A DNA stretch of 64,000 bases from Candidatus Multivoradales bacterium (GTDB taxonomy: Bacteria > Acidobacteriota > Thermoanaerobaculia > Multivoradales > JAHEKO01). Under the pieces are notes generated by a model. The model saw only the letters and a list, made by a program, of their open reading frames with translations. It was not told the origin of the DNA and made no database searches. Where the stretch lies: assembly GCA_965212505.1 (NCBI GenBank), contig OZ243123.1:4624313-4688312 (forward strand), written 5' to 3'. The position numbers and the translations under genes are program-made. This document shows, piece by piece, positions 16,397 through 64,000 of this stretch (position 1 is its first letter; every line of letters begins with the position of its first letter).

Positions 16397-16486
<90 letters not shown>

Positions 16487-17094: not shown

Positions 17095-17220
17095 GGGACC
17101 GAGGAAGGGTTCGGGTCCTGTGCACCGGCGGATTCCGAACCTCGTCAGGCCCGGAAGGGAGCAGCGATAAGGTCTCTTTGCCGGGTGCCGCAGATCAACC
17201 GGAACCCTTCCTCGACCCCT
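17095..17220 (+). ncRNA. ffs: Signal recognition particle RNA (4.5S / small SRP RNA)
   Basis: Domain IV core GUCAGGCCCGGAAGGGAGCAGC matches the bacterial SRP consensus GUCAGGUCCGGAAGGAAGCAGC. A terminal helix is formed by CGAGGAAGGGUUC (5') pairing with GAACCCUUCCUCG (3'). It lies immediately upstream of dnaX, a common synteny. Confidence 0.7.
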
Positions 17221-43253: not shown

Positions 43254-43338
43254 AAGCGGTCTTCATGGGTAGGGTGCGCCCCCGGCTTCGCTGCTAGACT
43301 CTCTTTCCCAAAACGACCGACGGGAGGAGCGAGCGTAG

Positions 43339-44718: not shown

Positions 44719-44729
44719 GGAACATCCGA

Positions 44730-45283: not shown

Positions 45284-45324
45284 GCCGACTGAATCTCGGC
45301 CGCGCTGCGTGATGGCCTCGACCG

Positions 45325-46371: not shown

Positions 46372-46560
46372 GGCGCGAAGGAATCGCGTCGTCGCGGCCC
46401 TCCTACCCGTAGGGGCGCGCCGTCAGCGGCACCGTTTCGAGAACTCCTCTATGGACACCCAACCCGGTAACTCCCGAGACGACACCTTCTCCCCGCCGCC
46501 GCGGCGCGCCCTGATTGCTCTCCTCGCCCCGGCGGCACCGGTCGGAAGACGAGGTAGAGT

Positions 46561-47253
46561 TTGCTCGCTGTGGCGACACCAACCAGCTTCCAACTTCTCG
46601 TCTTCGACTGGGACGGAACCCTGGTCGACTCGATCGGCCGAATCGTCGAGTGCACCCAGGCCAGCCTTCGCGACGTCGGCATCGACACGCCAGACGAAGA
46701 GCGGATTCGGATGTCGATCGGCCTGGGCATTCGCGCGATGGTCGATTCGTTCCTGCCCGGTTGTGACGACGCGACCTTTCACAAGATCTGCGACGCCTAT
46801 CGAGGCAATTGGCGCGAGACGTTCTCGCGCGACCCGGTGCTGTTCGACGGAGTCCGCGAAGCGTTGAACGACATGGAAGACGGCGGCTATCTACTGGCGG
46901 TTGCGACGGCCAAGAGCCGTTGGGGTCTGACGCAAGACCTCGAGGCGACCGGCTTGACCACCTTCTTCCACGGCTCGCGAACCGCAGATGAGAGTCAGTC
47001 GAAGCCGCACCCGGCGATGCTGCTCGAGCTCCTCGACGAGTTCGGCGTTCGCGCCGATCAGGCCCTGATGGTGGGCGACACCGTCCACGACCTGCAGATG
47101 GCCCAGAACGCTTCGGTCGCCGGCCTGGGTGTGACCACCGGGTCGCACGAGCGTGAGGATCTGGGCGTGGTCGAGACAATCGACGTTCTGGACGGAGTGA
47201 GCAACATGCCGGCGTGGCTTCGCGAGCTCGAAGGTTCGGAGCCTCGGCCTTGA
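46561..47253 (+). CDS. HAD-superfamily hydrolase (phosphoglycolate phosphatase-like)
   Basis: Motif I FDWDGTLVDS, motif II VATAKS, and motif IV GDTVHD. Confidence 0.8.
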   Translation: MLAVATPTSFQLLVFDWDGTLVDSIGRIVECTQASLRDVGIDTPDEERIRMSIGLGIRAMVDSFLPGCDDATFHKICDAYRGNWRETFSRDPVLFDGVREALNDMEDGGYLLAVATAKSRWGLTQDLEATGLTTFFHGSRTADESQSKPHPAMLLELLDEFGVRADQALMVGDTVHDLQMAQNASVAGLGVTTGSHEREDLGVVETIDVLDGVSNMPAWLRELEGSEPRP

Positions 47254-49721
47254 AGCGATCGACCGGCCTCGTCTTGGCGTTGCTAGCCGCGGTCGCGCTC
47301 CTGCCGGGTCCGCCGACGCCCGACCCACAGTTTGGGCAGCGACCCTTCGATCGACCCGACCAGGCGGCCGAGTTCGCTCGCGCAAAGCGGTTGGCCGGGA
47401 GCGGTATCTCCGATCCCGCCTCTGCGTACCGGAAGGCGCGCGCACACGTCGCCGAGATGCCGGTCTACTCGACGCGCCGCGACGTTCTGTCCGCCGCCCC
47501 CGAGACGCCGCGCAAGGTGACGTCGAACATCGACACCTGGACGGCCCTCGGCCCGGGCAATGTCGGCGGCCGCACTCGAACGCTCGCGATCCACCCGAAA
47601 AAGCCGAAGATCATGTACGCCGGTGGCGTGTCGGGCGGAATCTGGAAGACCAAGAACAACGGTCGCAAGTGGCAGCCGATCGGCGACGAGCTGACCAACA
47701 TCGCGGTCAACGTGCTCGCCCTCGACCCCGAGAGTCCGAACGTGGTCTACGCGGGCACCGGAGAGGGTTACTTCCGCGAGGAGGTGCGAGGCACCTCGCT
47801 GCCGCTCCGAGGCGGGGGCATCTTCAAGACCGAAGACGGGGGTGACAGCTGGCGACGGCTCGAGTCGACCTCTGGAGCGAACTTCTTCTGGGTCAACGAC
47901 CTCGTCATCAGTCACCTCGATAGTTCGCGTCTCTACGCGGCGACCCGCAAGGGCGTCTTCCGATCCAGAGATGGTGGCGAGAGCTGGAAGCGGGTGTTGA
48001 AGACCAAGGTGAAGGGCGGCTGTCTCGATCTCGCCGCACGCACCGACCTGGACACCGACTATCTACTGGCCTCTTGTGGAACGCTCGCGCAGGCCAAGGT
48101 TCATAGGAAGGTCGACGCCAACTCCGCCGGCTCCTGGAGCGTCGTGCTCAGCGAGGGTCCGGAGATGGGGCGCACGTCTCTGGCGTTTGCGCCGTCCGAT
48201 CAGAGTGTCGTGTACGCGGTTTCAGCGAGTAACGTCCCTGGCCCGGGAGGTCTGTTCGAGCAGGCGCTGCACGCGGTCTTCCGTTCGGACGAAGGCGGGG
48301 CGCCGAACAGCTGGCGAGCGACCGTGCGCAATCGCGATCCGCGCACGATCAACACGTTGTTGCTCAGCAATCCGATCATCGCCGTGCTCGAGGAATGCGG
48401 CTTCCAGGGGCCAAACGACAACCTGGCGATGGGTTGGTACGTCAACATGATCACTGTCGATCCGCGCGACCCCGATCGGGTCTGGGTCGCTGGGGTCGAC
48501 CTCTTCCGCTCAGATGATGGCGGTGAACGCTGGAACCCCGTCACCTACTGGTGGGCGGGCAGCGGCAACTCGAACTGGGTGCACGCCGATCAGCATCGCC
48601 TCGTCTTCCATCCGAAGAAGAAGCGGACGGCCTTCTCGCTCAACGACGGCGGCATTGCGCGCACACGCAACGCCGATGCGTTTGTGCCCGACAGCGACTT
48701 CGGCATCTGCTCGCCGGGGGTGGCCGGCGTGTCCTGGAAGCGCCTCAACAACAGCTACGGAGTGACGCAGTTCTACCATGGCACGGCCTTCCCGGACGGC
48801 CGCACTTACATGGCCGGCGCCCAGGACAACGGCACCGTGCTGGGAAGTGACGGCTCCGGGAACAACGGTTGGGTTTCGGTCTTCGGCGGCGACGGCGGTT
48901 ATTCGGCCGTCGACCCGCGCGACACCAACGTTCTCTATGTGACCTTCCAGAACGGCGAGGTCCGCAAGTCGTCTGACGGCGGATTCAACTTCCAGTCCGC
49001 GACCGCCGGTATCGACGATCTGCCGCTCAACGACTCATCGAACTTCCGAGCCTTCGGTGACTTCTTCCTGTTCATCGCGCCGCTGACCCTGGACCAGAAC
49101 GACCCCGATCGTCTCTGGACCGGCGGCACCCGGCTGTGGCGTACCGACGACGCGGCGGCCAACTGGCAGGGTGCGAGTGAACGCCTGAACTCGGGCGGCA
49201 AGGCGAGCGCCATCGCCGTCGCCGAAGGGAACTCCGACGTCGTGCTCGTGGGTTCCGACACCGGCCACATCTACCGCAGTACTGCGGCGACCTCGGCCGA
49301 CGAGGGAACCGTTTGGGACTCGACCCGCCCGCGGCAGGGGTTCGTCTCATCGGTAGCCTACGACCCGACCGACGCAAGTGTCGCCTACGCGACCTACGCC
49401 GGCTTCGGCGGCGCACACGTCTGGCGCAGTGACGACGGTGGCGCGACCTGGAACTCCATCGATGGTGGTGGTGCCGGTTCGGTGCCCGACGTCCCGGTGC
49501 ACTCGATTGTCGTCGACCCGACGCGGCCTGAGCGCCTCTACATCGGCACCGACCTGGGCGTGATGGCCTCGACGGACGGCGGCGCGACCTGGGCGGTCGA
49601 GAACACCGGCTTCGCCAACGCGGTCACCGAGTGGCTGTCGATCAACAGCGACCGCTCGACCGACGCCTATCTGTTTGCGTTCACGCACGGCCGTGGCGCC
49701 TGGCGCGTGCCGCTCGAGTAG
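47250..49721 (+). CDS. Secreted BNR/Asp-box repeat (sortilin/Vps10-like beta-propeller) protein
   Basis: Signal peptide plus at least five S-x-D-x-G-x-T/S-W Asp-box motifs (SRDGGESW, TEDGGDSW, SDDGGERW, SDDGGATW, STDGGATW). A TTG start at the HAD gene stop is likely. Confidence 0.75.
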   Translation: MKRSTGLVLALLAAVALLPGPPTPDPQFGQRPFDRPDQAAEFARAKRLAGSGISDPASAYRKARAHVAEMPVYSTRRDVLSAAPETPRKVTSNIDTWTALGPGNVGGRTRTLAIHPKKPKIMYAGGVSGGIWKTKNNGRKWQPIGDELTNIAVNVLALDPESPNVVYAGTGEGYFREEVRGTSLPLRGGGIFKTEDGGDSWRRLESTSGANFFWVNDLVISHLDSSRLYAATRKGVFRSRDGGESWKRVLKTKVKGGCLDLAARTDLDTDYLLASCGTLAQAKVHRKVDANSAGSWSVVLSEGPEMGRTSLAFAPSDQSVVYAVSASNVPGPGGLFEQALHAVFRSDEGGAPNSWRATVRNRDPRTINTLLLSNPIIAVLEECGFQGPNDNLAMGWYVNMITVDPRDPDRVWVAGVDLFRSDDGGERWNPVTYWWAGSGNSNWVHADQHRLVFHPKKKRTAFSLNDGGIARTRNADAFVPDSDFGICSPGVAGVSWKRLNNSYGVTQFYHGTAFPDGRTYMAGAQDNGTVLGSDGSGNNGWVSVFGGDGGYSAVDPRDTNVLYVTFQNGEVRKSSDGGFNFQSATAGIDDLPLNDSSNFRAFGDFFLFIAPLTLDQNDPDRLWTGGTRLWRTDDAAANWQGASERLNSGGKASAIAVAEGNSDVVLVGSDTGHIYRSTAATSADEGTVWDSTRPRQGFVSSVAYDPTDASVAYATYAGFGGAHVWRSDDGGATWNSIDGGGAGSVPDVPVHSIVVDPTRPERLYIGTDLGVMASTDGGATWAVENTGFANAVTEWLSINSDRSTDAYLFAFTHGRGAWRVPLE

Positions 49722-49853
49722 CTCCGGGCTCGTCTGGCGCACTCCTCCCGTCCTGTAGCGGGAAGGGCATGCACGGAGATCGACAGTCGCTCGTAAACCA
49801 ACCGACGGGAGAGGCTCGGGCTAGAATCGGCTCTTTCCCGGAAGGAGGGGTCG

Positions 49854-50387
49854 ATGACTGGAGGGGCACAGCGGAGCTCGAGGCTCGGACTCATCATTGG
49901 GGTCGCGGCGTTTGCGGGCGGCCTCTGGCTGCTACTCAACGCCATGAACGTCGGCGTGCCGGAGTTCAAGCGGCTGTGGCCGTCTCTCTTCATCGTTGCG
50001 GCGGTCGCGGCGTTGGTGGACTATTTCTTCCTCAAGCGCGTCCCCAGCTCGGCGGGTTGGATGGTGACCTTCTTCGGTTTCGGGGTCCTCGGATTCGCGC
50101 TGACGCTCGGCTACACCGACATGGGCAAGATCCTCGACTGGCTACCGAGCTTCCCGACCATCGCCGGGGTCGGGTTGCTGACTACGTGGATGGCGGGCGG
50201 CCGCCAGTCGACGAACCTACCGGTCGCCGGGATGGTCCTCGTCGGACTCGGCGTCCTCGGGTTCGCGGCGAGATTCGACTTCTTGCGCAAGATCCTGCCC
50301 TCGGCGCAAGTCATCTGGGCGCTCCTCTTCCTGCTCGGCGGCGCCTGGTTGGTCTGGCGCTATGTCATCCGCGCCAAGAACGACTAG
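49854..50387 (+). CDS. Integral membrane protein, hypothetical
   Basis: Five to six predicted TM helices; protein-like composition. Confidence 0.6.
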   Translation: MTGGAQRSSRLGLIIGVAAFAGGLWLLLNAMNVGVPEFKRLWPSLFIVAAVAALVDYFFLKRVPSSAGWMVTFFGFGVLGFALTLGYTDMGKILDWLPSFPTIAGVGLLTTWMAGGRQSTNLPVAGMVLVGLGVLGFAARFDFLRKILPSAQVIWALLFLLGGAWLVWRYVIRAKND

Positions 50388-50741
50388 GTGGCGACTGAAG
50401 CCGAAAAGCTCTTCGAACTCTGCCGCTCGCTCGCGGGTGTCACGGAAGACGTGAAGTGGGAGAAGAACTTGGTCTTTTCGGTCGGCGAGAAGATGTTCTG
50501 CGTATTCGGCCTGCCGGACGCCGAGACGATGAGTCTCAAGGTTGATGGCGAGGCCTTCGAGGCGCTGACCGAGCGACCGGGCATCAAGCCGGCTCCGTAT
50601 CTCGCGCGCCACTCCTGGATCTTCCTCGAGTCGCTCGACGCGCTGCCGCGCGACTTCCTCGAAGAGCTCATCGAGCGCTCCCACCTTTTGGTAGCGGCCA
50701 AGCTGTCGAAGAAACTGCGCGCGCGGCTCAGGATCGCCTAG
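50388..50741 (+). CDS. MmcQ/YjbR family DNA-binding protein
   Basis: Size and the conserved pattern (VTEDVKWEKNLVFSVGEKMFCVF...PYLARHSWI). Confidence 0.7.
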   Translation: MATEAEKLFELCRSLAGVTEDVKWEKNLVFSVGEKMFCVFGLPDAETMSLKVDGEAFEALTERPGIKPAPYLARHSWIFLESLDALPRDFLEELIERSHLLVAAKLSKKLRARLRIA

Positions 50742-50834
50742 CGGATTCGTCTTCCCGGGCCTCTTGCGCCGAACGCGCCTCGCCGCATAGGTTTGGCAGA
50801 GGGCCGAAACCTGAACGAGGTCGAGGGGAGAACC

Positions 50835-51773
50835 ATGAAGTACCTGTGCCTGAGCATGATCGTGCTGACACTCGTCGCGCTGGCGCCGCCGCCGGCAGCC
50901 GCGCACGACACCATGTCCATGGCCGAGCTGCTGCAGGCGTTCGGCTGGGACTTCGAGACCGCCGAGATCACCGTCGAGCAGGTGGGCGAGAACCTCTGGG
51001 TGCTGTTCGGGCTCGGAGGCAACGTCCTCGCGTCGATCAGTCCGCAGGGGGTCCTGATCGTCGACGACCAGTTTCCGGAGCTGATGCCGAAGATCAAGGC
51101 CGCGATCGCCGAACTTGGTGGCGGCGATGTCGACTTCGCCATCAACACGCACTGGCACTTCGATCATGCCGACGGCAACAAAGTGCTGGGCGAGGAGGGG
51201 ACCTGGTTGGTCTCGCAAATCAACTCGCGCGAGATGATGCTCGACACCCACACCATCGACCTGGTCGGTGCTGCTGTCGACCAGCCCGCCTATCCGAGCG
51301 AGGCGCTGCCGGTGATCACCTACGTCGACGAGATGCAGTTCTTCTTCAACGACGAGCGCATCGACCTGGTGCACTTCGGGCCAGCCCACACCACCGGCGA
51401 CACGGTGGTGATCTTTCGCGGCCACAACGTCGTGCACATGGGAGACGTCTTCAACAACACCGGCTATCCGTTCATCGACGCCGGCAATGGCGGCAGCCTG
51501 GATGGTCTCATCACCTTCTGCCGGGCGGTGCTCGACCGCATCGACCCGGGCACCGTCGTCGTGCCGGGACACGGTCCGGTAGCGACCTACGCCGAGCTCG
51601 ACGCCTACACCTCGATGTTGGCCACCATTCGCGACCGCATGCAGGCCCTCATCGACCGAGGGGCGAGCTTGAGCGACATCATCGAGGCCAAGCCGACGGC
51701 GGAGTGGGACGACAAGATGGGCGACCCGGCCCGTGTTCTCGATCGCGCCTACCTGAGCATGACGCGTCACTAG
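50835..51773 (+). CDS. MBL-fold metallo-hydrolase (subclass B3-like), secreted
   Basis: Signal peptide, the HxHxDH motif (NTHWHFDHADG), and a distal His (VPGHG). Confidence 0.8.
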   Translation: MKYLCLSMIVLTLVALAPPPAAAHDTMSMAELLQAFGWDFETAEITVEQVGENLWVLFGLGGNVLASISPQGVLIVDDQFPELMPKIKAAIAELGGGDVDFAINTHWHFDHADGNKVLGEEGTWLVSQINSREMMLDTHTIDLVGAAVDQPAYPSEALPVITYVDEMQFFFNDERIDLVHFGPAHTTGDTVVIFRGHNVVHMGDVFNNTGYPFIDAGNGGSLDGLITFCRAVLDRIDPGTVVVPGHGPVATYAELDAYTSMLATIRDRMQALIDRGASLSDIIEAKPTAEWDDKMGDPARVLDRAYLSMTRH

Positions 51774-51810
51774 AGGCTGCTGCAGGCTCTATCTCGAGCC
51801 GCTCGACGCG

Positions 51811-53025
51811 CTAGCGCCGGAGTTTCTCGATCAGGCCGAAAACCTCGTCGACCTGCTCCCAGCCGGTACGCATGAGGAACGTGTTGTTGCGCCCGTAGGA
51901 CTTGGCCCCGACGATGAAGAAGTTCGGCTCCGGGTTCACGAGCGTGTCCGCTCCGTGACTCTCCTGGGCGAGACAGTCTCCGCTGCTCGAGCCGAGGAGT
52001 GCTGCGGCAAGCTTCATCGGGCCGCTGGTGGCGTAGCACTCGTGGACTTGCAGCTGTCGGTAGAGGCTGTGATCGCCGACAAATCCTGTGAGCGAGACCA
52101 TGCGGTCTACATCGAGGGTCGTCCGCTCGCCGCTGCGATGGCGGAGTGTCACTTTGTAGCTGCCGTTGGTCGCGGAGATCGACTCGACCACCACGCCCAG
52201 CTCGGTCTTCACCCGGGAGCTTTCCTCGGCGATCTTTTGCGCACGACGAGTGAGACGGGCGCGCTCCGGCAGCGGATCGTCCGGGTCGACGTGCCAGCGA
52301 GGGCTCTCCGAGCGGAGCGCCCAGGTCACCTCGGTGCCCGGGAAGCGCTCGGCCAGCCAGGCCAGGTCGACGACTGCGGTCTGCGCTGAGTGCCCGGCGC
52401 CGACCAGGAGGATCTTTTTCCCCGCCCACCGGCTCTCGTCGCGCACGAGGTCTGGGATGTGGCGCTCGATCGCCGCGGCCGCCGCCTCTTCTCCAGGGGC
52501 TTCGATACCGCCGTCGCCGAGTGCGTTCGGGTGACCCCAAGAGCCGGTGCAGTCCAAGACGACGTCCGCGTGCTCGACCCTTTCGCGCCCATGCTCGTCC
52601 TCGACCAACAGGCGGAACGGCTGTGCGCGGCGCTCCTCGGAGCCGATCTCCTCGTGCTTGAGTAGCCCCTCGCGTCCCACTCGCTTGACCCGCGTACCGG
52701 TTCTCACGTGCGGGGCGACCTGCGGGAGCTCCGCGATCGGGGCGAAGACCGTCTCGACCAGTTCGCTACCGGTGGGACAGTCCGGGTCGTCCTCGGCTGG
52801 CAGTCCCGCTCCGGTCCCTGCCAGTGCGCGACGCATTCGAGGCGAAATGTCCAATCCCCACGGGGTGAAGAGACGCACGTGGCCCCAGCGACGAACGCTC
52901 GAACAGACCTCGGAGCCGGCTTCGTAAACAGTGAACGAGCAGTCGCTTTCTTGGGCTGCGAGGGCTGCTTCGAGTCCTACGGGGCCCGCGCCCAGAATGG
53001 CGATGTGCGGTGTTTCGGAGCTCAT
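51811..53025 (-). CDS. FAD/NAD(P)-binding oxidoreductase (flavin monooxygenase-like)
   Basis: N-terminal Rossmann IAILGAGPVGLEAALAA and a second GxGxxA (LVGAGHSAQTA). Confidence 0.7.
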   Translation of the reverse strand: MSSETPHIAILGAGPVGLEAALAAQESDCSFTVYEAGSEVCSSVRRWGHVRLFTPWGLDISPRMRRALAGTGAGLPAEDDPDCPTGSELVETVFAPIAELPQVAPHVRTGTRVKRVGREGLLKHEEIGSEERRAQPFRLLVEDEHGRERVEHADVVLDCTGSWGHPNALGDGGIEAPGEEAAAAAIERHIPDLVRDESRWAGKKILLVGAGHSAQTAVVDLAWLAERFPGTEVTWALRSESPRWHVDPDDPLPERARLTRRAQKIAEESSRVKTELGVVVESISATNGSYKVTLRHRSGERTTLDVDRMVSLTGFVGDHSLYRQLQVHECYATSGPMKLAAALLGSSSGDCLAQESHGADTLVNPEPNFFIVGAKSYGRNNTFLMRTGWEQVDEVFGLIEKLRR

Positions 53026-53028
53026 GGG

Positions 53029-54135
53029 TCAGTACCTTGAAGAAGCCCGCTCCTTGGCGGGGAGGATTTCCAAGCAGGTGGTCCACCATCCGGTGAGGAC
53101 GGTCTCGACGAACTCTTCCGGCAGCTCTTCGACTCGCATCTCTGCCGCGAGCGCGTCGTGATCGTAGGCGAGCGGAACCAGCTCGACCGCAAGCCCTTCC
53201 GATCTCTCTTCGAGCATGGCGTACCAGACGTGAGTGTTGCCATCGTTTGCCGGCCGGCCGATGACACCTACGTTGACGACGTCGCCGCCGGAGGGCAGTT
53301 TGCGGTGCCATGGCAGACCGGTGTGGGTACAAAGGAAGCCGTCCGCCTTCTCCTGGCCGAGAAGCACTTCGAGGAACGCTGTCGGTGTCGTGGAAAGAAA
53401 CAGGAACTCGTTGATCTGTCGGGGTGAGCCGTGGACCAGCAACAGTTCGCGATCGCCGACGCGCACACGCCGTCGCTCCGGCAGCTCCCCCATCCACTCC
53501 TTGAACTCGGGCGCGCAATTGCGGGCTGTGTAGTTGTACGAGAGCTCTGCGAAGTGGTTGTCGCGCGGATCCGTGTAGCCGCAGTTGCAGTCCTCGTGGC
53601 CGGTTGCCAGCGACTGCTCGTAGTTGCCCTGAAGGGTCGACACGCCCCCCTCGTCGAGCAGTGGTCGGACCCGGTTCGGATTGGGCCCGAAGCCGCCCAG
53701 ATCTCCGAGGCAGTAGATCGCCTCGGCCCCTCGCCGGGTCGCGTCGTCGAGGAGAGCGGTCAAGCCGTAGTGGTTGTTGTAGACGCCGCCAAAGACTGCG
53801 ATCCGCGAGTACGGCCCCTCTACCGGAGTCTCGTCGTCCGAAATCGCCAAGAAGCTGTCGACCTCTTCGGCGCGCCCTTCCGGCGAGAGCTCGCGACCGG
53901 CCTTCGCGGTCGCCTCTCGGAACTCACCCAGCGGCACCAACCTCTCCCCCCAGGTCGCAAGACCACGATGCACGGTCAGAGGCGACGAGTCGCGCCGCTT
54001 CTTGTCTCGATCGTCCTTTGGAGTTCTCGGGCTCATTCGGAGGAACCAAGAGAGGGGCTCGTCAAACAACTGGCCATCGACGCAAGTCCGACAGGAGGGT
54101 TTGTCAAGGGAGGGCTCTCCCTTGACCCCAATCAA
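53029..54135 (-). CDS. Metallophosphoesterase (calcineurin-like) family protein
   Basis: GDLGGFGPNP and GNYE/GH motifs typical of the calcineurin fold. Four-nt gap to the upstream oxidoreductase. Confidence 0.7.
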   Translation of the reverse strand: MIGVKGEPSLDKPSCRTCVDGQLFDEPLSWFLRMSPRTPKDDRDKKRRDSSPLTVHRGLATWGERLVPLGEFREATAKAGRELSPEGRAEEVDSFLAISDDETPVEGPYSRIAVFGGVYNNHYGLTALLDDATRRGAEAIYCLGDLGGFGPNPNRVRPLLDEGGVSTLQGNYEQSLATGHEDCNCGYTDPRDNHFAELSYNYTARNCAPEFKEWMGELPERRRVRVGDRELLLVHGSPRQINEFLFLSTTPTAFLEVLLGQEKADGFLCTHTGLPWHRKLPSGGDVVNVGVIGRPANDGNTHVWYAMLEERSEGLAVELVPLAYDHDALAAEMRVEELPEEFVETVLTGWWTTCLEILPAKERASSRY

Positions 54136-54153
54136 CTCTCTCCCTTGATTCGG

Positions 54154-54951
54154 TCACGTCTTGCAACTCACTCCGAACACATGGCACGTCCAGCAGGCCG
54201 GATGCCCCATCTCGAACGGCCCCAGCGTGTCGGCGATCGCCTCGCCCATCTTGCCGTCGGGCTCGTTGACCAGAATCGGGCAGACCCACACCCCTTGATC
54301 GGTGACCATTCGGCAGCCGCTGCATTGCAAGTGCGACCAGCCGTCGGATGGCGTGTCGCCCTCGCGCAACCGCTGCCAGCTCTCGTAGGCGCCGCCGCGT
54401 TCGGCCTCGGCGCCCATGCGGAAGACGGGTAGCATCTTGAGCCGCGGCTTCTCGATGCCCATCTCGCTCAGGAGCTCGAAGAAGCGCAGGCGACCCTCTC
54501 GAGAGGCGTTTTGATCGTGCACCTCGGTGACCGTGATCACGGGATTGATCCCCGCTCGGTAGAGGTTGGAGATCCCGCCGAGAATCCGCACGAACGTCCC
54601 TTCGCCTCGAATCGGGTCGTTCGTGGCGGCGTCGTAGCCGTCCATCGACACTCTGAAGTCGAGAGAGTAGTCGCTCGCCGTGGCGAGTTTCGCGAGTCGC
54701 TCGCAGCGCACCGGATCGAGAAGTAGACCGTTGGTGAGAACCGTCGCCGGGCCGTACTCGAGAGTCCTCGCGAGGATGGCCTCCATCTCGGAATTGAGGA
54801 ACGGCTCGCCGCCGGTGAAGTAGTACTCCTTCACCCCCAGGCGCGCGCCCTCTTCGAGATAGGGCACAACCTCTTCCAACGACAACCCATCGTGAGTGTG
54901 GTTGGTCGGCGAGCTCGAGACGAAGCAGTGCGTGCACGCGAGATTGCACAC
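54154..54951 (-). CDS. arsS: ArsS-like radical SAM protein (arsenosugar-biosynthesis type), Cys-rich C-terminus; true start probably upstream (frame open to ~55104 without ATG/GTG/TTG)
   Basis: CNLACTHCF radical SAM cluster motif, a GGEP SAM-binding motif, and a C-terminal Cys-rich tail (CSGCRMV...CP...HPACWTCHVFGVSC). Positioned immediately downstream of arsM. Confidence 0.7.
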   Translation of the reverse strand: MCNLACTHCFVSSSPTNHTHDGLSLEEVVPYLEEGARLGVKEYYFTGGEPFLNSEMEAILARTLEYGPATVLTNGLLLDPVRCERLAKLATASDYSLDFRVSMDGYDAATNDPIRGEGTFVRILGGISNLYRAGINPVITVTEVHDQNASREGRLRFFELLSEMGIEKPRLKMLPVFRMGAEAERGGAYESWQRLREGDTPSDGWSHLQCSGCRMVTDQGVWVCPILVNEPDGKMGEAIADTLGPFEMGHPACWTCHVFGVSCKT

Positions 54952-55034
54952 CGTACCGGCGATCTGAAACCAGAGGGTGTCCAGCGAGCGGAGCTCGACC
55001 TTCGGTGCAGCCCGCGCGACCTCGATCGGCTGAC

Positions 55035-56189
55035 TCAGCAGCAGTCTCCCGGTTCGCAGCAGGCCTTGGCCTCGGTGGTTGCGTCGTATTCGAGCCCTTT
55101 CGTTTCACGAGGGTGCCGAAGGACCGTGCGCGAGCAGTCGAACGGCTCGGCGGCCTCGAGCGGAACCTCCTCGAGCGGATCGACGAAGTCGAAGTGCTCG
55201 CGATAGGGCTCGCGCTTGTAGATGTTGTAGGTCTTGTCGCAGACAGCGTAGCGGTGGCCACGCTCCATGCGGTGATCGTCGTCGTCGAGGACCTCTTTGA
55301 ACGGACCGCGATAGACCACCGCCTGGTTGCGCTCGACGCAGGGCCCTTCTTTGCCCTTGAACGCCTCGACGGTGAGCGAACGGAACTCGATGCCCTCGAC
55401 GGTGCGCCACGGCTCTTCCTGCCGTTCGAGCACTCGCACGCCGTAGAAGCCGACCTCTTCGAACGCTTTCAGAAATCCGTCTTCGGTGAAGGCGCCAGAG
55501 ATACAGCCACTCCAGAGATCCGCGTCCGTCTGCATGGAGAGCGGTACATCTTCGTCGCTCACAATGTCCGAGATCACCGCGCGACCGCCGTTGTTCAGCA
55601 CTCGGTAGATCTCTTCGAAGAGCTCGCGCTTGCGCGAGTTGTCGACCAGGTTCAGCACGCAGTTCGACACCACCACGTCGACCGAGTCGTCGGCGACCAA
55701 CGGCCGGCTCCGGCGAAGCTCTTCGCTCAACCCTTCGATCTCGAGCAGGCCCTCGACGTCGGTAACCGGCGTCGAGCCGAGGCGCTCCTCGAGTAGGTCG
55801 AGGTCTAGGGCGAGGTCCTGAATCCGCCCTCGGCGAAATTCGACGTTCGAGAAGCCGATGCGCTCGGCGACCACCGGTACGTTGCGACGTGCGACATCGA
55901 GCATGTCGGGCGTCATGTCGACGCCGATCACCTTGCCCTGCGCTCCCACCACCTGGGCTGCGATGAAGCAGATCTTCCCTGTTCCGCTCCCCAGGTCGAG
56001 CACGGTCTCGCCTTCGTTCAGGAAGCGGCTCGGATCACCGCAACCGTAGTCGCGCTCGAGAACCTCGCTCGGGATCACCTCCAAGTAGCGAGGGTCGTAG
56101 TCGACCGGGCAGCAGAGCTCCGGCACCTGGGTCTGGGCGCCGGCGCTGTAGCGCTCTTTGACGGCCCGCTCTGTATTGGCAACTGTCAT
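55035..56189 (-). CDS. arsM: Arsenite S-adenosylmethionine methyltransferase ArsM with Cys-rich C-terminal tail
   Basis: VKERYSAGAQ..CCPVDYD (N-terminal Cys pair), GCGDP, VLDLGSGTG, GVDMTPDMLDVAR, VVVSNCVLNL, and WSGCISGA (third As-binding Cys) match the characterized ArsM pattern. C-terminus ends KACCEPGDCC. Confidence 0.85.
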   Translation of the reverse strand: MTVANTERAVKERYSAGAQTQVPELCCPVDYDPRYLEVIPSEVLERDYGCGDPSRFLNEGETVLDLGSGTGKICFIAAQVVGAQGKVIGVDMTPDMLDVARRNVPVVAERIGFSNVEFRRGRIQDLALDLDLLEERLGSTPVTDVEGLLEIEGLSEELRRSRPLVADDSVDVVVSNCVLNLVDNSRKRELFEEIYRVLNNGGRAVISDIVSDEDVPLSMQTDADLWSGCISGAFTEDGFLKAFEEVGFYGVRVLERQEEPWRTVEGIEFRSLTVEAFKGKEGPCVERNQAVVYRGPFKEVLDDDDHRMERGHRYAVCDKTYNIYKREPYREHFDFVDPLEEVPLEAAEPFDCSRTVLRHPRETKGLEYDATTEAKACCEPGDCC

Positions 56190-56306
56190 CTAGATTCCAC
56201 TCCAGTCTCTGGCGGAGCCCTCTCCGCCGTTCAAGAAGTCGTCTCGCATCGATGCGCGAGGGGGCGACCGGCTTGGCGGTCGCGCGTCGTTGGGTCTCGG
56301 TCGGCT

Positions 56307-57038
56307 CTAGGCCGGCGGACCGCGAAGCGATCGAGTCGGTCGATAGCCAGTTGCGGTGACGCCCACGAGAGCGGGTGCCAGGGGGGTACAGAGGGCGAGG
56401 AGCGCGGCGCGCAACTCTCGCAAGAGCCCCTGCCAGCGCGGTGCCTGTTCTCGAGCGATCCAGGCGAGAAGATCTCGAGCGCGATCGAGATCACGCAATG
56501 GCTCGAGAAGGTAGACCTCGAGGCCGCGCTCTTCGAGCGCCCTGCGAAGGGTGGCGAGCGTAGCGTGGCAACACCAGTGAACGCTCGCTAGCTCAGCATC
56601 GAGGCAGATGTTGGTTGCGAGCAGGTAGAAGCCGCCGTCGGGAGACGGTCCGAGTACGACGCGCCGGCGTGAAGACCCGAGCCGGCCGAGCGCTTCCCGC
56701 ACGTGGCGAGACTCAAGCCCCGGCACGTCGGAGCCCACCGCCACGACCGGTCCGTCCGCTTCCAGGCGTGCTGCCGAAAGAGCGTTTCGGAATCTCTCGC
56801 CGAACGAGGCGCCCGTCTGGCGAATCATGTGAGCCCCGGGCTCGGTCAGCTGCGGCTCGGTCGTAGCAACCTGAAGCCGGCAACCGGAAGTTCGCCCGGC
56901 GGTCAAAGCCGCGTCGAGGCTCTCCCGCAGAACGCTTCGTGTCAGCCCGTCGAATCGTCTCGGCAGGAGCCGCCGCTGCGCACACTCACTCGCGGGAGTT
57001 CGGGCAAAGACGAGCAGACTCGGCTGGTGGGCTGTCAT
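56307..57038 (-). CDS. DUF2064 (TIGR04282-type, glycosyltransferase-like nucleotidyltransferase fold) protein associated with arsenosugar clusters
   Basis: LLVFARTP N-terminus and DGGFYLLA motif typical of DUF2064. Located upstream of arsM on the same strand. Confidence 0.6.
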   Translation of the reverse strand: MTAHQPSLLVFARTPASECAQRRLLPRRFDGLTRSVLRESLDAALTAGRTSGCRLQVATTEPQLTEPGAHMIRQTGASFGERFRNALSAARLEADGPVVAVGSDVPGLESRHVREALGRLGSSRRRVVLGPSPDGGFYLLATNICLDAELASVHWCCHATLATLRRALEERGLEVYLLEPLRDLDRARDLLAWIAREQAPRWQGLLRELRAALLALCTPLAPALVGVTATGYRPTRSLRGPPA

Positions 57039-57128: not shown

Positions 57129-57548
57129 TTGGCCAGATACCTCGCGATCTCGCTGCCGCTCCTGGTACTCCTGATGGGCGGATTCACCTTCGTACTCGGC
57201 GCCGTCGGATTGAGCCCCTCTCTCGCCTCGTTGGAGCGAGCGGGTCTGGCGCGGCCCGAGGCGCTGCCGATCGGCCTCTCCGTTGCGGGTTGGCTGATCG
57301 AGACGCTCGCCCTGACGGCGCTCTTTCTCTTGATTCAAGATCGCACCGGCGCCTGGTGGATCGACGGCCTGGTCGCGGGCATGATCGGATGGGTCTTCCG
57401 CGGTCCGATCCTGGTGTTGACGATCGTTTCGACCAGTCGTCTCGGCGTCGACCCCTGGTGGCCGATGGCCCTGCGGCTCCTGCTGCTCTACTCGATCTGT
57501 GGCCTCGCCCTCGCGATGATCGCCCGATCGGTTGGGCTCGAGCGATGA
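57129..57548 (+). CDS. Small multi-TM membrane protein, hypothetical (TTG start; ATGA-coupled to the type III PKS)
   Basis: Four predicted TM helices. The stop overlaps the PKS start. No ATG in frame; TTG proposed. Confidence 0.4.
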   Translation: MARYLAISLPLLVLLMGGFTFVLGAVGLSPSLASLERAGLARPEALPIGLSVAGWLIETLALTALFLLIQDRTGAWWIDGLVAGMIGWVFRGPILVLTIVSTSRLGVDPWWPMALRLLLLYSICGLALAMIARSVGLER

Positions 57549-58627
57549 GCGGCGCACCACGAGTGGTCGCGGTCGGCAGTGCGTTTCCAGAGCACTACTA
57601 CGAGCAGGAAGAGCTCCTGGCGGCCTTCCGCCGCGTCTGGGCGCCGAAGATCTTCAACCTTGCACGACTCGAACGACTCCACCGTAACGTATTGGTCGGG
57701 AATCGCCATCTGGCACTGCCGCTCGAGAAGTACGAAGAGCTCGAGACGTGGGGCCAGGCGAACGACGCTTGGATCGAGGTGGCGCAGGACGTCGGCGCGC
57801 GCGCTGTCTCCGACGCCCTCGAGCGCGCCGGTCTGTCGGTCGAGGACCCTGCGGCGATCTTCTTCGTGACGGTCACCGGTGTCGCCACGCCGTCGATCGA
57901 TGCTCGGTTGATCAACCGACTCGGTCTCTCGTCGAGCATCAAGCGCAACCCGATCTTTGGTCTCGGCTGTGTGGCGGGAGCCGCCGGCATCGCCCGCGCG
58001 TCGGACTACGTGCGTGCCTTCCCCGATCAGGTCGCTGTACTGCTCTCGGTCGAGCTCTGCTCCTTGACCCTCCAGCAGAAGGACTTCTCGGTGGCCAACC
58101 TGATCTCCTCCGGACTCTTCGGAGACGGTGCGGCCGCAGCGGTTGTTGCCGGGGCCGAGTGCCCGTTGAACGACGCCCCTAGGGGGCCTCGAGTGGTCGC
58201 GACTCGCTCGATCTTCTACCCCGACTCCGAGCGGGTGATGGGCTGGGACATCTCGGAGAGCGGCTTCCAAGTTGTGCTCTCACCAGAGGTCCCTGAAGTC
58301 GTGCGACAGTTTCTTCGGCGCGACGTCGATGCGTTTCTCGGCGATCTCGACTTGGAGGTTGGCGACATCAACTCGTGGGTTGCCCACCCCGGCGGTCCGA
58401 AGGTCCTTCAGGCGATGGAAGAGTCGCTCGAGATCGAGGGCGGCGAGAAGGGGGCACTCGGCGTCACCTGGCGGAGCCTCAAAGAGGTCGGCAACCTCTC
58501 CTCCACCTCCGTGCTGCTAGTGCTCCAAGAGACGATGGCCGAGCACCGCCCCGAGCCTGGGAGCCTAGGAATGCTCCTCGCCCTCGGTCCGGGTTTCTGT
58601 TCGGAACTTGTGCTCCTCGAGTGGTAG
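57545..58627 (+). CDS. Type III polyketide synthase (chalcone/stilbene synthase superfamily)
   Basis: Catalytic Cys in GLGCVAGAAG, His in WVAHPGGPKVL, and Asn in GNLSSTSV. About 361 aa. Confidence 0.85.
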   Translation: MSGAPRVVAVGSAFPEHYYEQEELLAAFRRVWAPKIFNLARLERLHRNVLVGNRHLALPLEKYEELETWGQANDAWIEVAQDVGARAVSDALERAGLSVEDPAAIFFVTVTGVATPSIDARLINRLGLSSSIKRNPIFGLGCVAGAAGIARASDYVRAFPDQVAVLLSVELCSLTLQQKDFSVANLISSGLFGDGAAAAVVAGAECPLNDAPRGPRVVATRSIFYPDSERVMGWDISESGFQVVLSPEVPEVVRQFLRRDVDAFLGDLDLEVGDINSWVAHPGGPKVLQAMEESLEIEGGEKGALGVTWRSLKEVGNLSSTSVLLVLQETMAEHRPEPGSLGMLLALGPGFCSELVLLEW

Positions 58628-59101
58628 CTACGGCGTCGCGTCGAGGAGCGAGCACCAGAAGGTCACGGCGGTGAGCTTCTTGTTGCCCTTGAGGTTCAGC
58701 TCGGCGACCAGCGCCACCTGCTGGGCGAAGCCCGCTCGACGCGGGATCGGATAGTCGAAGGTCACGATGCCGTTCTTGTTGGTCTTGGCGGTCTGATCTT
58801 CGAACACTTCGATCTCCGCGTAGGTGTTGGCGTCGACCAGTCGCGCCGAGACGGTCCCCTTCACGCCTTTGCGCGGCTCGCTGCTCACAAGGGCGTCGAT
58901 TGCACAGGTGGCGGACAGCTCGTCCTCGAGGATGCCGCCAACCACGACAGGGCCAGGTTCCTCGACGTCCTTGGCCTTGGTCTCCTGGTCGTGGGTGACC
59001 GTCGACGCGGCGTTGTTCGTTCCGGTATCGGCGCCCAGAGGAGAGAGGGCGAAGAGGAAGAACACGAGCGCGAAAGCGAGCCTGCACGAGAGCTTCGTCA
59101 T
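58628..59101 (-). CDS. Small secreted hypothetical protein
   Basis: Signal peptide (MTKLSCRLAFALVFFLFALSPLGA). Paralogous to the next gene. Confidence 0.5.
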   Translation of the reverse strand: MTKLSCRLAFALVFFLFALSPLGADTGTNNAASTVTHDQETKAKDVEEPGPVVVGGILEDELSATCAIDALVSSEPRKGVKGTVSARLVDANTYAEIEVFEDQTAKTNKNGIVTFDYPIPRRAGFAQQVALVAELNLKGNKKLTAVTFWCSLLDATP

Positions 59102-59112
59102 TCGTCGTCCTC

Positions 59113-59616
59113 CTAGCTGCAGGCCGGGTCGCTCGACCCGTTGCAGAGATCGCCAAAGCCGTAGATACAGCGCAAGCGAATCTCGTCGGTTTTCTTCTTG
59201 TTGACGGGGTCGGCGGTCGCGGTGAGCACCGAGTTCGCGGGAGCGGCGCCGAGAAGTGGCGGCACCACGATCGGCTTCGTCCATCCGTCTTTCTTCGTGC
59301 GCTTGGTTTCCGTGGTGTCACTCAAGAGATTGCGCTCCGCATCGTGAATACGGAAGCGCACGTCCGACTTGACTCCTTTGAGAGCGCCGAACACCGCGCA
59401 GCGGATCTCCTTGGCCTGGCCGCTGGAGGCCGAGAGTGGTATCAGCACGGTCAGCACACCGCTCGAGAAGGTGTTGGCGGCCGCCTCGGCGTCTTTGGTC
59501 TGTGCGGCCTCGGCCTCGCTGAAGCGACGGACCTCGGCGGCACCGGCTGAGTCAACCGGGGCGAACGAGCACAGCACGACCGCGACGAGCGAGAGGATGG
59601 TGCACCTGCGAGTCAT
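59113..59616 (-). CDS. Small secreted hypothetical protein (paralog)
   Basis: Signal peptide. Shares the C..F.AL.KGVK...R..DA...........T.KT.K.G pattern with the neighbouring gene. Confidence 0.5.
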   Translation of the reverse strand: MTRRCTILSLVAVVLCSFAPVDSAGAAEVRRFSEAEAAQTKDAEAAANTFSSGVLTVLIPLSASSGQAKEIRCAVFGALKGVKSDVRFRIHDAERNLLSDTTETKRTKKDGWTKPIVVPPLLGAAPANSVLTATADPVNKKKTDEIRLRCIYGFGDLCNGSSDPACS

Positions 59617-59685
59617 CGTTCCTCCTTTCCTCTCGGGTGAGCGCATACAGCCTACAGCACGCCTCTCCGGCGGATGAAAGGAGCC

Positions 59686-60522
<837 letters not shown>

Positions 60523-60747
60523 GGTGATCGAACCTATCGCGGATCTTGAGGACCGACAATTGTAGCTTCCGCTTGGCGAAGCGGGATCGTGGATCGGGGG
60601 ACCGTCTGTGCCGTGAAGCGCCAACATCGCGGATGCCGCTGCATTCCCGGTGGATAGAATCGAATGTACTCCTACAACTTGCAGCGACTCGTCCCTCGAC
60701 TGCCGGTTGTGGTCTAGAAACCCGCTTGTGAGGGGTGGAGGTGTTAG

Positions 60748-61872
60748 ATGCCAAGACGAGCAGCACTCATGGCGGCGCAGACGATTCTGATTCTCTGGGC
60801 ACATCAGGCATTGGCGACTGCCCCGCTCCCGGTGACGCCAAAAGCCGAAGCTGGTGGGGGTGTCGCCACGATGTTTACGCCCTGCCCGACGTTCCATTGG
60901 GTAGAGAGCCCTGAAGCCCGTCGATACGAGCTGGTCGTCTTCGACGCGGAGGCGTCCGAGCTCTATCGGGTCGAGCTCCCCGCGGGCGCCCAGATGTGGA
61001 CTCCGACAATCGACCGTTGTTTTGAGCCTGGTCTTCAGTACGCCTGGGCTTTGCGCGCCGTCGTAGACGAGTCGACTGAGCTCTGGTCCGATGTTGTGCT
61101 CTTTCGGGTCACGCGCCCAGGCGCTTTGACGAGAGGCCGGCGATCCGACAATGAAGAGCTTCCCATCTCGCCGGCTCCCAGTGAGTCGAGCGGCACTCAG
61201 TCGCCGCCGCCGAGTTCACCGCTGCCGACCGAAGGCCCTGGTCTCCTCGCCCCAGAGCGTCAGCGAGTCGTGTCGGGCGAGCAAACGAAGACGGCCGGTA
61301 TCTCGATCAGCTCTGCGATCAGCGTCGACGACAACCTCCACGCGACAACCGGTGACACGCCGACGCTCCGCCTGGAGCAAGACGGCTCTGGCAGCTTCAC
61401 TCCACAGACTTGGGACATCCGAGCGAACGAGACAGACTTCCGCATCGTAGATGTCGACGCCGACGAGACGCGCTTCAGGATCGATCGATCGAGCGGGCTG
61501 GTAAGCGGCGCCTTCGCAATCGCCTCCGATTGGATCACGCCAAGCACCTATACCGGTTCCGATGTCTTTGGGGTCCTCAATTTTCGAGCGGTTATCTCCG
61601 CCCCGGAGATCACCCAGGAGGTGATCGATTCGGGCGCAGTTGTCGTCTATGGGAATCTGCTGTCCTATGCGGTGGGTTTCTGGCCGCCAGGAGAGGTCGC
61701 CCAGTTGCCGATCACGACGGTTTATGTCGCGGGCGACATTTTCTACGAGGACCGATGGTCGTACCGCTTGAACCCGGGTTCGCTGGAGATTCACGTCACG
61801 AATAACGAGGATCTCTACTCGACGTTCCCTTCGGGGGCAGAGTTTCGGTACGTGGTGATACCGCCCCCTTAG
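60748..61872 (+). CDS. Secreted hypothetical protein
   Basis: Signal peptide (LILWAHQALATAP); protein-like composition. No recognisable domain. Confidence 0.5.
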   Translation: MPRRAALMAAQTILILWAHQALATAPLPVTPKAEAGGGVATMFTPCPTFHWVESPEARRYELVVFDAEASELYRVELPAGAQMWTPTIDRCFEPGLQYAWALRAVVDESTELWSDVVLFRVTRPGALTRGRRSDNEELPISPAPSESSGTQSPPPSSPLPTEGPGLLAPERQRVVSGEQTKTAGISISSAISVDDNLHATTGDTPTLRLEQDGSGSFTPQTWDIRANETDFRIVDVDADETRFRIDRSSGLVSGAFAIASDWITPSTYTGSDVFGVLNFRAVISAPEITQEVIDSGAVVVYGNLLSYAVGFWPPGEVAQLPITTVYVAGDIFYEDRWSYRLNPGSLEIHVTNNEDLYSTFPSGAEFRYVVIPPP

Positions 61873-62069
61873 CGGCCACGTGACGCCGCGTCCGACTTGG
61901 CCGGAGTGGAACGGCGTGCGAGCCCGAGATCAGGTGGCCCGAGGCCTGCGGTCCGAGCTTCAAGATGACGAGAAGTCGCAGGAGACAGGGTCAGCGGCTG
62001 AGGAGGGCGAAACGTCTCGAGCGCCGAGGTCGCGCGCGAGTGCGAGAAGCCGCGACATAATCACCCGCG

Positions 62070-62648
62070 GTGCTGGACATCCTCGCTCTCGATAGCCGAA
62101 CCCTTTACCTGCTCCTGATCGTCGCGATTGTTCTCGAGCGGCTGGTGGAGCTGCGCATCACCCAACGGAACCTCGCCTGGGCGATGCAGAACGGCGGCAT
62201 CGAAGCGGGGCGCGGGCACTACCCGGTGATGGTCGCGCTGCACACGGCGTTCTTGATTGCCGGGCCGGCCGAAGTCCTCTTGCTCGACAGACCGTTCATC
62301 GCGGGGCTCGGCTTCCCGATGCTGGCGGTCGTCCTTCTCGGCATGGGGCTCCGCTACTGGGCGGTCACGACGCTCGGCAAGCGATGGACGACACGGGTGG
62401 TGTGCGTGCCGGGCCTGCCGGTCGTCACGGGTGGGCCGTATCGATTCGTGCGCCACCCAAACTACGTGGCGGTGGTGCTCGAGATCTTCGCGCTGCCGCT
62501 CGTCCACTCAGCGTGGCTGACGGCGCTGGTGTTCACGGTTGCGAACCTCTTCCTGCTGCGCACTCGTATTCGGGTCGAGGAAGAGGCGCTCGAGGAGTTC
62601 AACGACTACCGAGAAGGTTTTCGCGCGGCGCGGGCGAGTTCGACATGA
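62070..62648 (+). CDS. Isoprenylcysteine carboxyl methyltransferase (ICMT) family membrane methyltransferase
   Basis: Multi-TM with the C-terminal GPYRFVRHPNY...E motif characteristic of ICMT/PEMT-fold methyltransferases. Confidence 0.8.
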   Translation: MLDILALDSRTLYLLLIVAIVLERLVELRITQRNLAWAMQNGGIEAGRGHYPVMVALHTAFLIAGPAEVLLLDRPFIAGLGFPMLAVVLLGMGLRYWAVTTLGKRWTTRVVCVPGLPVVTGGPYRFVRHPNYVAVVLEIFALPLVHSAWLTALVFTVANLFLLRTRIRVEEEALEEFNDYREGFRAARASST

Positions 62649-62884
62649 CGGCCGAAGAGATCCTGAGCGAGATTCGACAGCTCGCGCGCGAACGGTTGGC
62701 GTTGGAGATGACGGTCGAGCCGGCGAGTCGGCTGGTCGAAGATCTGGGGCTCGATTCGCTGCGACTCCAGGCGCTCGCGATCGAGGTCGAGAATCACTTT
62801 CGGATCTGCCTCGAGCCCGAGGACGAAGAGTCGATCCGCACCATCGGCGATCTCGTCTCGACGATCGACGGGAAGTTGGCGTGA
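62644..62884 (+). CDS. Acyl carrier protein
   Basis: About 80 aa with the phosphopantetheine attachment motif LGLDSL. Overlaps the ICMT stop and the FAAL start. Confidence 0.75.
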
Positions 62885-64000
62885 CGGCGGAGCCATCGCT
62901 CGTGGCGCGAGTCGCCGGCACCTTGAGCGAGTCCCTGGCGCGAGCGGCGCTCGATCCCGCGACCGGCGTACGACTCGTCGATCGCCGGGAGGCCGAGACC
63001 TGGCTGCCGTGGTCCGAAGTGCTGTCGACTGCGGAGCGGGTTGCGGGAGGGCTGCAGGCGTCCGGCGTCGAGCCCGGAGACCGAGTCGGTCTGATCTTCG
63101 GTACCGGTCGTGAGCTGATCGAAGCCTACTTCGGCGCCTCGCTCGCCGGAGCCATCCCGGCCAGCCTCGCGCCGCCACCGCGACTCGGCGGCCTCGAGGG
63201 TTACGTCGAGCGGGTGAGGGCGATGTTGAGCGCCGCCGACGCGAAGCTGGTTCTCGCCGAAGACCGATCGAAGCGCCGCCTCGGAGACGCGGTCGATCCG
63301 ACTCCGATGCGAACACTTGCGGAGCTCCCGGAAGGAAAACGAGTCGATCTGCCGCCCGTGAGTCCAGGCGACGTGGCGATGATTCAGTTCTCTTCGGGAA
63401 CCGAGCTCAAACCCAAGCCGGCGGCGCTTTCGCATCGAGCGATTCTCGGACAGGCGAGGCTCTTGAACGGCTACTGGCCGGAGACCGGCGTCACGCACCG
63501 CGGCTGCTCTTGGCTGCCGCTCTACCACGACATGGGGTTGATCGGCTGCCTGTTGGTGGCTCTCGAGCGGCCGGGGGAGTTGGTACTCCTGCCGCCCGAG
63601 GTGTTCGCGGCGCGACCGGCGATCTGGCTGCGAACGATCTCGCGTTACCAGGCAACCATCTCACCCGCCACGAACTTCGCCTATGCCCACTGTCTCGACT
63701 CCATTCGCGACGACGAGCTAGAAGGGGTCGATCTGTCGAGCTGGAGCGTGGCGCTCAACGGCGCCGAGCCGATCAGCGCCGACGTCATGCGCCGCTTCGC
63801 TGAGCGCTTCGCCCGATGGGGCTTCCCCGCCGAAGCGTTGACACCGGTTTACGGCCTCGCGGAGGCGTCGTTGGCGGTGACGTTTTCGGAGGTCGACTCG
63901 CCCTTCTCGAGTCGCCGCTTCGATCGCGAGCGACTCGCCGAGGGCTGTCGCGTGAAGGAAGACTCGGACGGGCGGGAGCTGGTTTCGGTCGGCTCGCCGG
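62881..64000 (+). CDS. Fatty acyl-AMP ligase / AMP-dependent synthetase (continues beyond window end)
   Basis: Manual translation from the GTG at 62881 gives an AMP-binding enzyme. The motif IQFSSGTELKPKPAALSH resembles the T[SG]-S[G]-G-[ST]-[TE]-G-x-[PALIVM]-K signature and is followed by YGLAEAS. No stop before 64000, so it is absent from the ORF track. Confidence 0.75.
   Translation, partial: MTAEPSLVARVAGTLSESLARAALDPATGVRLVDRREAETWLPWSEVLSTAERVAGGLQASGVEPGDRVGLIFGTGRELIEAYFGASLAGAIPASLAPPPRLGGLEGYVERVRAMLSAADAKLVLAEDRSKRRLGDAVDPTPMRTLAELPEGKRVDLPPVSPGDVAMIQFSSGTELKPKPAALSHRAILGQARLLNGYWPETGVTHRGCSWLPLYHDMGLIGCLLVALERPGELVLLPPEVFAARPAIWLRTISRYQATISPATNFAYAHCLDSIRDDELEGVDLSSWSVALNGAEPISADVMRRFAERFARWGFPAEALTPVYGLAEASLAVTFSEVDSPFSSRRFDRERLAEGCRVKEDSDGRELVSVGSP

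Follow-up and report, generated by a model that had tools for sequence, protein, structure and literature searches.

Gene content of the cluster region

The window analysed here, a 64,000-nucleotide stretch of contig OZ243123.1 from an acidobacterium of the class Thermoanaerobaculia, ends in a group of genes centred on a type III polyketide synthase (PKS). This PKS, an ICMT-family methyltransferase, a stand-alone acyl carrier protein (ACP) and a probable fatty acyl-AMP ligase (FAAL) were all encoded within 6.9 kb, which is the gene content of an Ftp-type cluster (Table 1). Coordinates follow the numbering of the 64-kb window; the gene map was made from a list of open reading frames (ORFs) and by direct translation, and domains were assigned by Pfam and NCBIfam scans. 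All Pfam domain matches of the cluster region exceeded the gathering scores. Third-position GC was 0.71-0.87 in every ORF of the region (0.87 in 58628-59101), indicating that all of them, the unannotated ones included, look coding. The PKS gene overlapped that of a small membrane protein, here called mem139, by the four nucleotides ATGA; the ICMT and ACP genes likewise overlapped by an ATGA, and the ACP and AMP-ligase genes by GTGA, also four nucleotides.

A previous interpretation of this DNA from its letters alone (the sequence-only reading) had described a small membrane protein coupled to a type III PKS and, about 3.4 kb downstream, an ICMT-type methyltransferase, an ACP and a FAAL-type ligase overlapping by 4 nt, with a double FKBP isomerase between the two halves. 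These coordinates and domains were reproduced, and both FKBP_C stretches were recovered by Pfam. Its description of two small secreted proteins in the gap as paralogous was not established (BLASTP E = 0.007, with 25-28% identity over short stretches). The content of the contig past base 64000 was inferred from relatives with 82-84% identity, and the expectation that more of the cluster lies there fits the gene content of the two closest relatives (loci L003 and L001/L004).

Table 1. Genes of the cluster region and of the divergent set upstream (window coordinates)
Feature	Position	Strand	Remarks
mem139 membrane protein, 139 aa	57129-57548	+	TTG start; no family match; four-helix prediction
Type III PKS, alkylresorcinol-synthase type (Pks11/SrsA-like), 360 aa	57545-58627	+	Chal_sti_synt_N and Chal_sti_synt_C
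Small predicted secreted protein, 157 aa	58628-59101	-	Signal-peptide-like N-terminus; no Pfam or NCBIfam match
Small predicted secreted protein, up to 177 aa	59113-59646	-	Signal-peptide-like N-terminus; no Pfam or NCBIfam match
Tandem FKBP-type peptidyl-prolyl isomerase, secreted, 278 aa	59686-60522	-	Two FKBP_C stretches, 166 bits (Pfam)
Predicted secreted protein, 374 aa	60748-61872	+	Signal-peptide-like N-terminus; no Pfam or NCBIfam match
ICMT-family integral-membrane S-adenosylmethionine (SAM) methyltransferase (SrsB-type), 192 aa	62070-62648	+	Pfam ICMT
Stand-alone ACP, 79 aa	62645-62884	+	Pfam PP-binding; Ser38 in GLDSL
Probable FAAL, N-terminal 373 of ~560 aa	62881-64000	+	Pfam AMP-binding; cut by the window end
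Five-gene set: Pyr_redox flavoprotein, Metallophos_2, radical SAM, ArsM-like methyltransferase, DUF2064	51811-57038	-	

Properties of the encoded enzymes

The Chal_sti_synt domains of the PKS scored 74.2 and 63.3 bits against a Pfam cut-off of 27. Pks11 of Mycobacterium tuberculosis (PDB 4jao) was the best solved relative, with 47.9% identity over the full length, E = 1e-96 and 327 bits; the resorcinol-forming CylI came second (232 bits), and the naphthalene-type 1u0m (158 bits), Pks18 (111 bits) and the plant/chalcone synthases were far lower. The Cys-His-Asn triad was intact, as the sequence-only reading had stated, since Cys142, His281 and Asn317 aligned with Cys138, His277 and Asn310 of Pks11. 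Trp234 aligned with Trp230 of Pks11, a position (W281 in ArsB) which is essential to resorcinol formation in ArsB and is kept in FtpA, SrsA, PKS10 and PKS11 (PMC5916927). The NCBIfam equivalog cut-off for DpgA, a 3,5-dihydroxyphenylacetyl-CoA synthase, was not reached by the PKS (189.8 bits against 425). Judged by these alignments, the PKS groups with the long-chain lipid type III PKSs; no nearer affinity to non-lipid type III PKSs was seen, Pks11 and then CylI being closest. Homologues with 70-84% identity were very numerous and came nearly all from metagenome-assembled Thermoanaerobaculia or other Acidobacteriota. A single scan of species-representative genomes returned more than 500 related genes, and the pathway appears to be very common in Thermoanaerobaculia.

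The methyltransferase scored 96 bits against Pfam ICMT (cut-off 24) and fell below the NCBIfam equivalog cut-off for a true protein-S-isoprenylcysteine O-methyltransferase (40.3 bits against 160). In Nonomuraea and Myxococcales, homologues with 61-64% identity to it come after a type III PKS, and the enzyme is an ICMT superfamily member of the PKS-linked small-molecule type. For the ACP, the NCBIfam ACP models matched below their cut-offs, and Ser38 was the phosphopantetheine serine. The AMP-ligase fragment scored 167 bits against Pfam AMP-binding. Its top solved relatives were all FAALs (3kxw, 3pbk, FadD32, FadD23 and FadD28), and the best NCBIfam model was PRK09192, 'fatty acyl-AMP ligase'.

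Gene order in related loci

Linkage of the two halves was examined in 80 related loci with 10-kb flanks, mostly from Thermoanaerobaculia, plus one locus obtained by exact look-up. The window proteins and the genes 3' of the FAAL of the closest relative were mapped onto these loci by tblastn, and the denominators differ by gene. The ICMT gene was found downstream of the PKS in 70 of 76 loci, the ACP gene in 62 of 73 and the FAAL gene in 53 of 64, and a flavin adenine dinucleotide (FAD) monooxygenase gene came after the FAAL in 46 of 58, including the two closest relatives. The gap between PKS and ICMT had a median of 33 bp and was shorter than 200 bp in 54 of 71 loci. Together, the downstream counts and the short gaps indicated that the genes normally form a single uninterrupted operon, PKS-ICMT-ACP-FAAL-FAD monooxygenase. 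The ICMT-ACP-FAAL block was consequently tied to the PKS, as the sequence-only reading had assumed, rather than absent beside PKS orthologues. The order PKS-ICMT-ACP-AMP-ligase was identical on a Myxococcales contig. On a Streptomyces plasmid, an operon was arranged in the srsABC manner, as PKS-ICMT-FAD monooxygenase; the PKS and ICMT encoded there were 54 and 59% identical to the window proteins, and the monooxygenase shared 48% identity with its counterpart in L001.

A B12-binding radical SAM gene (15696-17505 in L001; TIGR03960-like, 196 bits against 462) was observed 3' of the FAD monooxygenase, downstream of the PKS, in 22 of 49 loci, sometimes with a DUF6116 gene. This gene may encode one more tailoring enzyme or be simply a neighbour by synteny.

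Genes inserted between the PKS and the ICMT

In the window, the PKS and ICMT genes were separated by three minus-strand genes and one plus-strand 374-aa ORF. The FKBP gene was near the PKS in 3 of 69 loci (L003, L004 and L028), two of which are the closest relatives (82-84% PKS identity), and the three secreted-protein genes (58628-59101, 59113-59646 and 60748-61872) were found in none of the 69 related loci. Region 58628-62069, the relation of which to the cluster had been left undecided by the sequence-only reading, was by these counts not conserved with it. At the same junction, other loci (L005, L008, L019, L024, L029, L037, L043, L052, L056 and L070) carried Schlafen AlbA_2/HATPase_c_4, Fic/DOC, DinB-family or extra class I methyltransferase genes. 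Because nearly all relatives lacked the genes seen here and some had other cargo in their place, insertions were taken to recur at the PKS-ICMT junction, and the 3.4 kb was read as cargo. The four intervening genes are accordingly classed, on comparative grounds, as inserted cargo outside the pathway; the FKBP gene is an older insertion common only to the closest relatives. The surroundings of the insertion showed no sign of a mobile element, neither flanking repeats nor tRNA genes, and no promoter or terminator signal above chance. The insertion splits the cluster into two transcription units.

The FKBP gene contained an internal direct repeat of 239 nt with 79% identity (59708-59946 and 60083-60321), the trace of an FKBP domain duplicated in tandem. 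Its product also scored above the NCBIfam BamJ cut-off (146 against 100), a level that probably arises only from the two domains being summed.

Predicted pathway and product

The gene content, catalytic residues, orthology and linkage reported above make it very probable that the window end carries an Ftp/Srs-type phenolic-lipid cluster of a Thermoanaerobaculia-like acidobacterium, split into two transcription units by an unrelated insertion. With substrates, product and tailoring order modelled on homologues, the FAAL would adenylate a long-chain fatty acid and load it onto the stand-alone ACP, as FtpD does, and the type III PKS would take this acyl-ACP starter, as FtpA does, and add malonyl (perhaps methylmalonyl) units. 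Aldol ring closure guided by Trp234 would then give an alkylresorcinol or alkylresorcylic acid, the phenol of which would be methylated by the membrane-embedded ICMT-family enzyme. The FAD monooxygenase, whose gene is present in relatives and expected just past base 64000, would hydroxylate the ring to yield a membrane-held methoxy-alkyl-benzoquinone or quinol. By analogy, the product is likely an O-methylated alkylresorcinol, which the hydroxylase probably oxidises further to an alkylquinone. Because the monooxygenase follows the FAAL in so many of the relatives, a quinone or quinol end product is likelier than a plain alkylresorcinol or alkylpyrone. The sequence-only reading had named an alkylresorcinol or alkylpyrone lipid; the resorcinol type, with which Trp234 agrees, was supported, and the plain form was revised.

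Several points weigh against this interpretation. The hydroxylase gene lies outside the window, which ends inside the FAAL. Pks11 and other type III PKSs of its clade also form alkylpyrones in vitro. The PRK09192 model was matched with 255.6 bits by the FAAL fragment and with 406.7 bits by the full-length orthologue of 560 aa in L001, both short of the cut-off of 600. Finally, the PKS has lost co-transcription with the ICMT operon in this genome, so that their coordinated expression is not guaranteed. The first of these points also speaks for an end product without a quinone, either an alkylpyrone formed by lactone cyclisation or a plain O-methyl alkylresorcinol of the envelope, and BpsA/BpsB-like two-gene systems do end at methylated products. 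However, the PKS has a tryptophan at the resorcinol-determining position, and the relatives, the two closest among them, mostly keep after the FAAL a monooxygenase related to that of the Streptomyces operon; a non-quinone product is judged unlikely, although it deserves some weight.

We consider it very unlikely that the halves are independent, with the PKS and its membrane partner using acyl-CoA starters and the ICMT-ACP-FAAL block serving another lipid pathway. Between the halves lie 3.4 kb that include opposite-strand genes, which puts the halves in separate transcription units, and in some relatives (e.g., L022, L027, L036, L040 and L086) the PKS had no adjacent ICMT, ACP or FAAL. Against this, the ICMT followed the PKS in nearly all loci and ACP-FAAL did so in more than 80%, the closest relatives retained all genes intact despite the FKBP insertion, and the window ICMT closely resembled the methyltransferase of the Streptomyces PKS-ICMT-monooxygenase operon. 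One split pathway remains the preferred reading.

The membrane protein mem139

No Pfam or NCBIfam match was obtained for mem139. Its AlphaFold prediction had four long helices and one short helix, with four transmembrane segments and a mean pLDDT of 85, in agreement with the four-helix protein of the sequence-only reading. When 1.84 billion representative proteins were searched with a profile, only 70 clusters of the family were recovered, and a Pfam scan of the longer homologues revealed no additional domains. In 51 related loci, a hidden Markov model detected a mem139 homologue 5' of the PKS; most lay no more than about 150 bp away and on the same strand, and five were inverted. Two more distant homologues likewise immediately preceded a type III PKS gene, one of them with the identical 4-nt overlap. 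Loci that lack the neighbouring radical-SAM set still had mem139, so that its association is with the PKS. On a distant contig (L086, 2265-3290), the mem139/PKS pair was followed by two Sulf_transp (YeeE/YedE-like) genes and by no ICMT-ACP-FAAL. A degenerate ICMT was considered as the origin of mem139 and rejected (hhalign probability 0.4%).

By these searches, mem139 represents a small, unannotated, lineage-specific family nearly confined to the position upstream of these PKS genes. Residues W55, E58, G74, W76, D79, G80, W88, F90, R91, G92, P93 and Y121 were invariant, and the charged helix residues among them (E58, D79 and R91) suggest a specific role. As for what this role might be, our guess is that mem139 offers the soluble PKS a docking site on the membrane or accepts the hydrophobic product there. 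It is the sole part of the cluster without precedent, and offers a concrete and cheap experimental target. A stronger proposal makes mem139 a hitherto unrecognised, obligate partner of these PKSs that holds the soluble synthase at the membrane or takes over its lipid product, and thereby defines a new phenolic-lipid sub-type in Acidobacteriota; in a bolder variant, the pathway is coupled to the ArsM-like/radical-SAM set to give a modified (e.g., arsenic-bearing) lipid. We estimate this proposal as improbable.

The divergent upstream gene set

The five-gene set and the mem139 gene shared a divergent intergenic region of 90 bp. The ArsM-like methyltransferase had the cysteine motifs YGCGDP, SNCV and GCISGA and matched arsinothricin ArsM best (346 bits against a cut-off of 500), and the DUF2064 protein was TIGR04282-like (95 bits against 134). 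Only these two members of the set resembled arsenic-pathway families, both below cut-off. The radical SAM protein was considered as ArsS, with the set as 'arsenosugar genes', and this was rejected (45 bits against 300); its best match was the Rv1681 family (99 against 380). The set may represent an as yet uncharacterised pathway of organoarsenical or related type. The radical SAM ORF had no ATG, GTG or TTG upstream of CxxxCxxC, and its open frame at 54951-55034 (minus strand) matched the N-terminus of a relative (VELRSLDTLWFQ); translation probably begins at a non-standard codon, or else continues by read-through from near the ArsM stop.

The set adjoined the PKS operon in many relatives (radical SAM in 42 of 61 and ArsM-like in 18 of 50), and the conserved order ran on into M20 peptidase, Rce1-like, CYTH, NTP-transferase and HAD genes. 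Because the order extends into these unrelated genes and distant lineages have the PKS operon alone, the adjacency was attributed to inherited synteny, and a functional link of the set to the PKS operon was rejected as unsupported. That the two jointly make or handle an organoarsenical or modified lipid is hardly credible: although they stay side by side in many relatives despite internal rearrangements and share the divergent intergenic region here, inherited order suffices as explanation, Myxococcales, Streptomyces and distant lineages carry the operon without the set, the radical SAM protein is no ArsS, and no paper linking the two was found.

Further upstream, the block at 42639-47253 (Rce1-like, M20 peptidase, CYTH, NTP-transferase and HAD) was syntenic with relatives. 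About 4.5 kb (47214-51788) parted this block from the flavoprotein gene both here and in L001, and held genes for an 835-aa Sortilin/BNR-repeat protein, a LiaF-TM protein and a YjbR protein. Two tRNA-Ser genes (anticodons CGA and GGA) and a small SRP RNA, unrelated to the cluster, were present at 16013-17207.

Significance and comparison with known systems

No published account of this cluster in Acidobacteriota turned up. The pathway is of a known kind (Ftp/Srs-type phenolic lipid/polyketide quinone), and the local peculiarities are the cargo insertion and the unannotated membrane partner. Its assignment extends Srs/Ftp-type pathways to Thermoanaerobaculia, a little-studied and mostly uncultured class of Acidobacteriota, and illustrates that a biosynthetic cluster split by inserted cargo is still recognisable through comparison of relatives. 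Quinones of this type reportedly act as alternative electron carriers in Streptomyces and mycobacteria, and those of S. griseus are reported to influence tolerance to beta-lactams. For mycobacterial polyketide quinones, the electron-carrier role is described in three papers (PMC10896814, PMC5916927, PMC9927152). The cluster may bear on respiration or envelope protection in these soil bacteria, its lipid being a candidate electron carrier, envelope component or protectant.

The sequence-only reading had taken a type III PKS with an ICMT-like methyltransferase as the hallmark of both Streptomyces Srs and Azotobacter Ars systems, of which only the former held. The Ars system of Azotobacter vinelandii also makes long-chain alkylresorcinols and alkylpyrones from ACP-bound starters, but it obtains them from type I synthases and has a pair of type III PKSs (PMC5916927), and neither an ICMT nor a FAAL has been described in it. 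Here, one PKS was present, and no type I synthase domains were found among the genes called in the 21 kb of L001 or in the window region examined. Cyanobacterial and planctomycetal hidABC-type clusters share a methyltransferase, an FAD oxidoreductase and an alkylresorcinol synthase (PMC10896814), but in them the PKS is last in order, and ACP and FAAL are missing.

A closer fit was provided by SrsABC of S. griseus and the mycobacterial pks10 'polyketide quinone' operon, which combine a PKS, an ICMT-family methyltransferase and a flavin hydroxylase (the last, for the window cluster, seen in its relatives) and make methylated alkylresorcinols that are oxidised to alkylquinones (PMC10896814, PMC5916927). 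The 54, 59 and 48% identities to the Streptomyces plasmid operon agree with this likeness. Unlike the window cluster, Srs-type operons have no ACP, FAAL or membrane-protein partner, and their starters are thought to be acyl-CoA or derived from fatty acid synthase. Pks11 has its triad and tryptophan at the same positions as the window PKS, but its context differs, with type I PKS genes there (PMC5916927).

The Ftp system of Myxococcus xanthus (Hayashi et al. 2011, cited in PMC5707447 and PMC10896814) fits as well. Its type III PKS FtpA is primed by acyl-ACP made by a dedicated FAAL, FtpD (PMC5707447), and the products of FtpA, as of SrsA, are oxidised to alkylquinones (PMC10896814). The likeness extends to the Myxococcales contig with PKS-ICMT-ACP-AMP-ligase, the ICMT of which was 61% identical to that of the window. 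The window cluster differs from Ftp in that its PKS is cut off by 3.4 kb of inserted genes, mem139 is coupled upstream, and the host is an acidobacterium.

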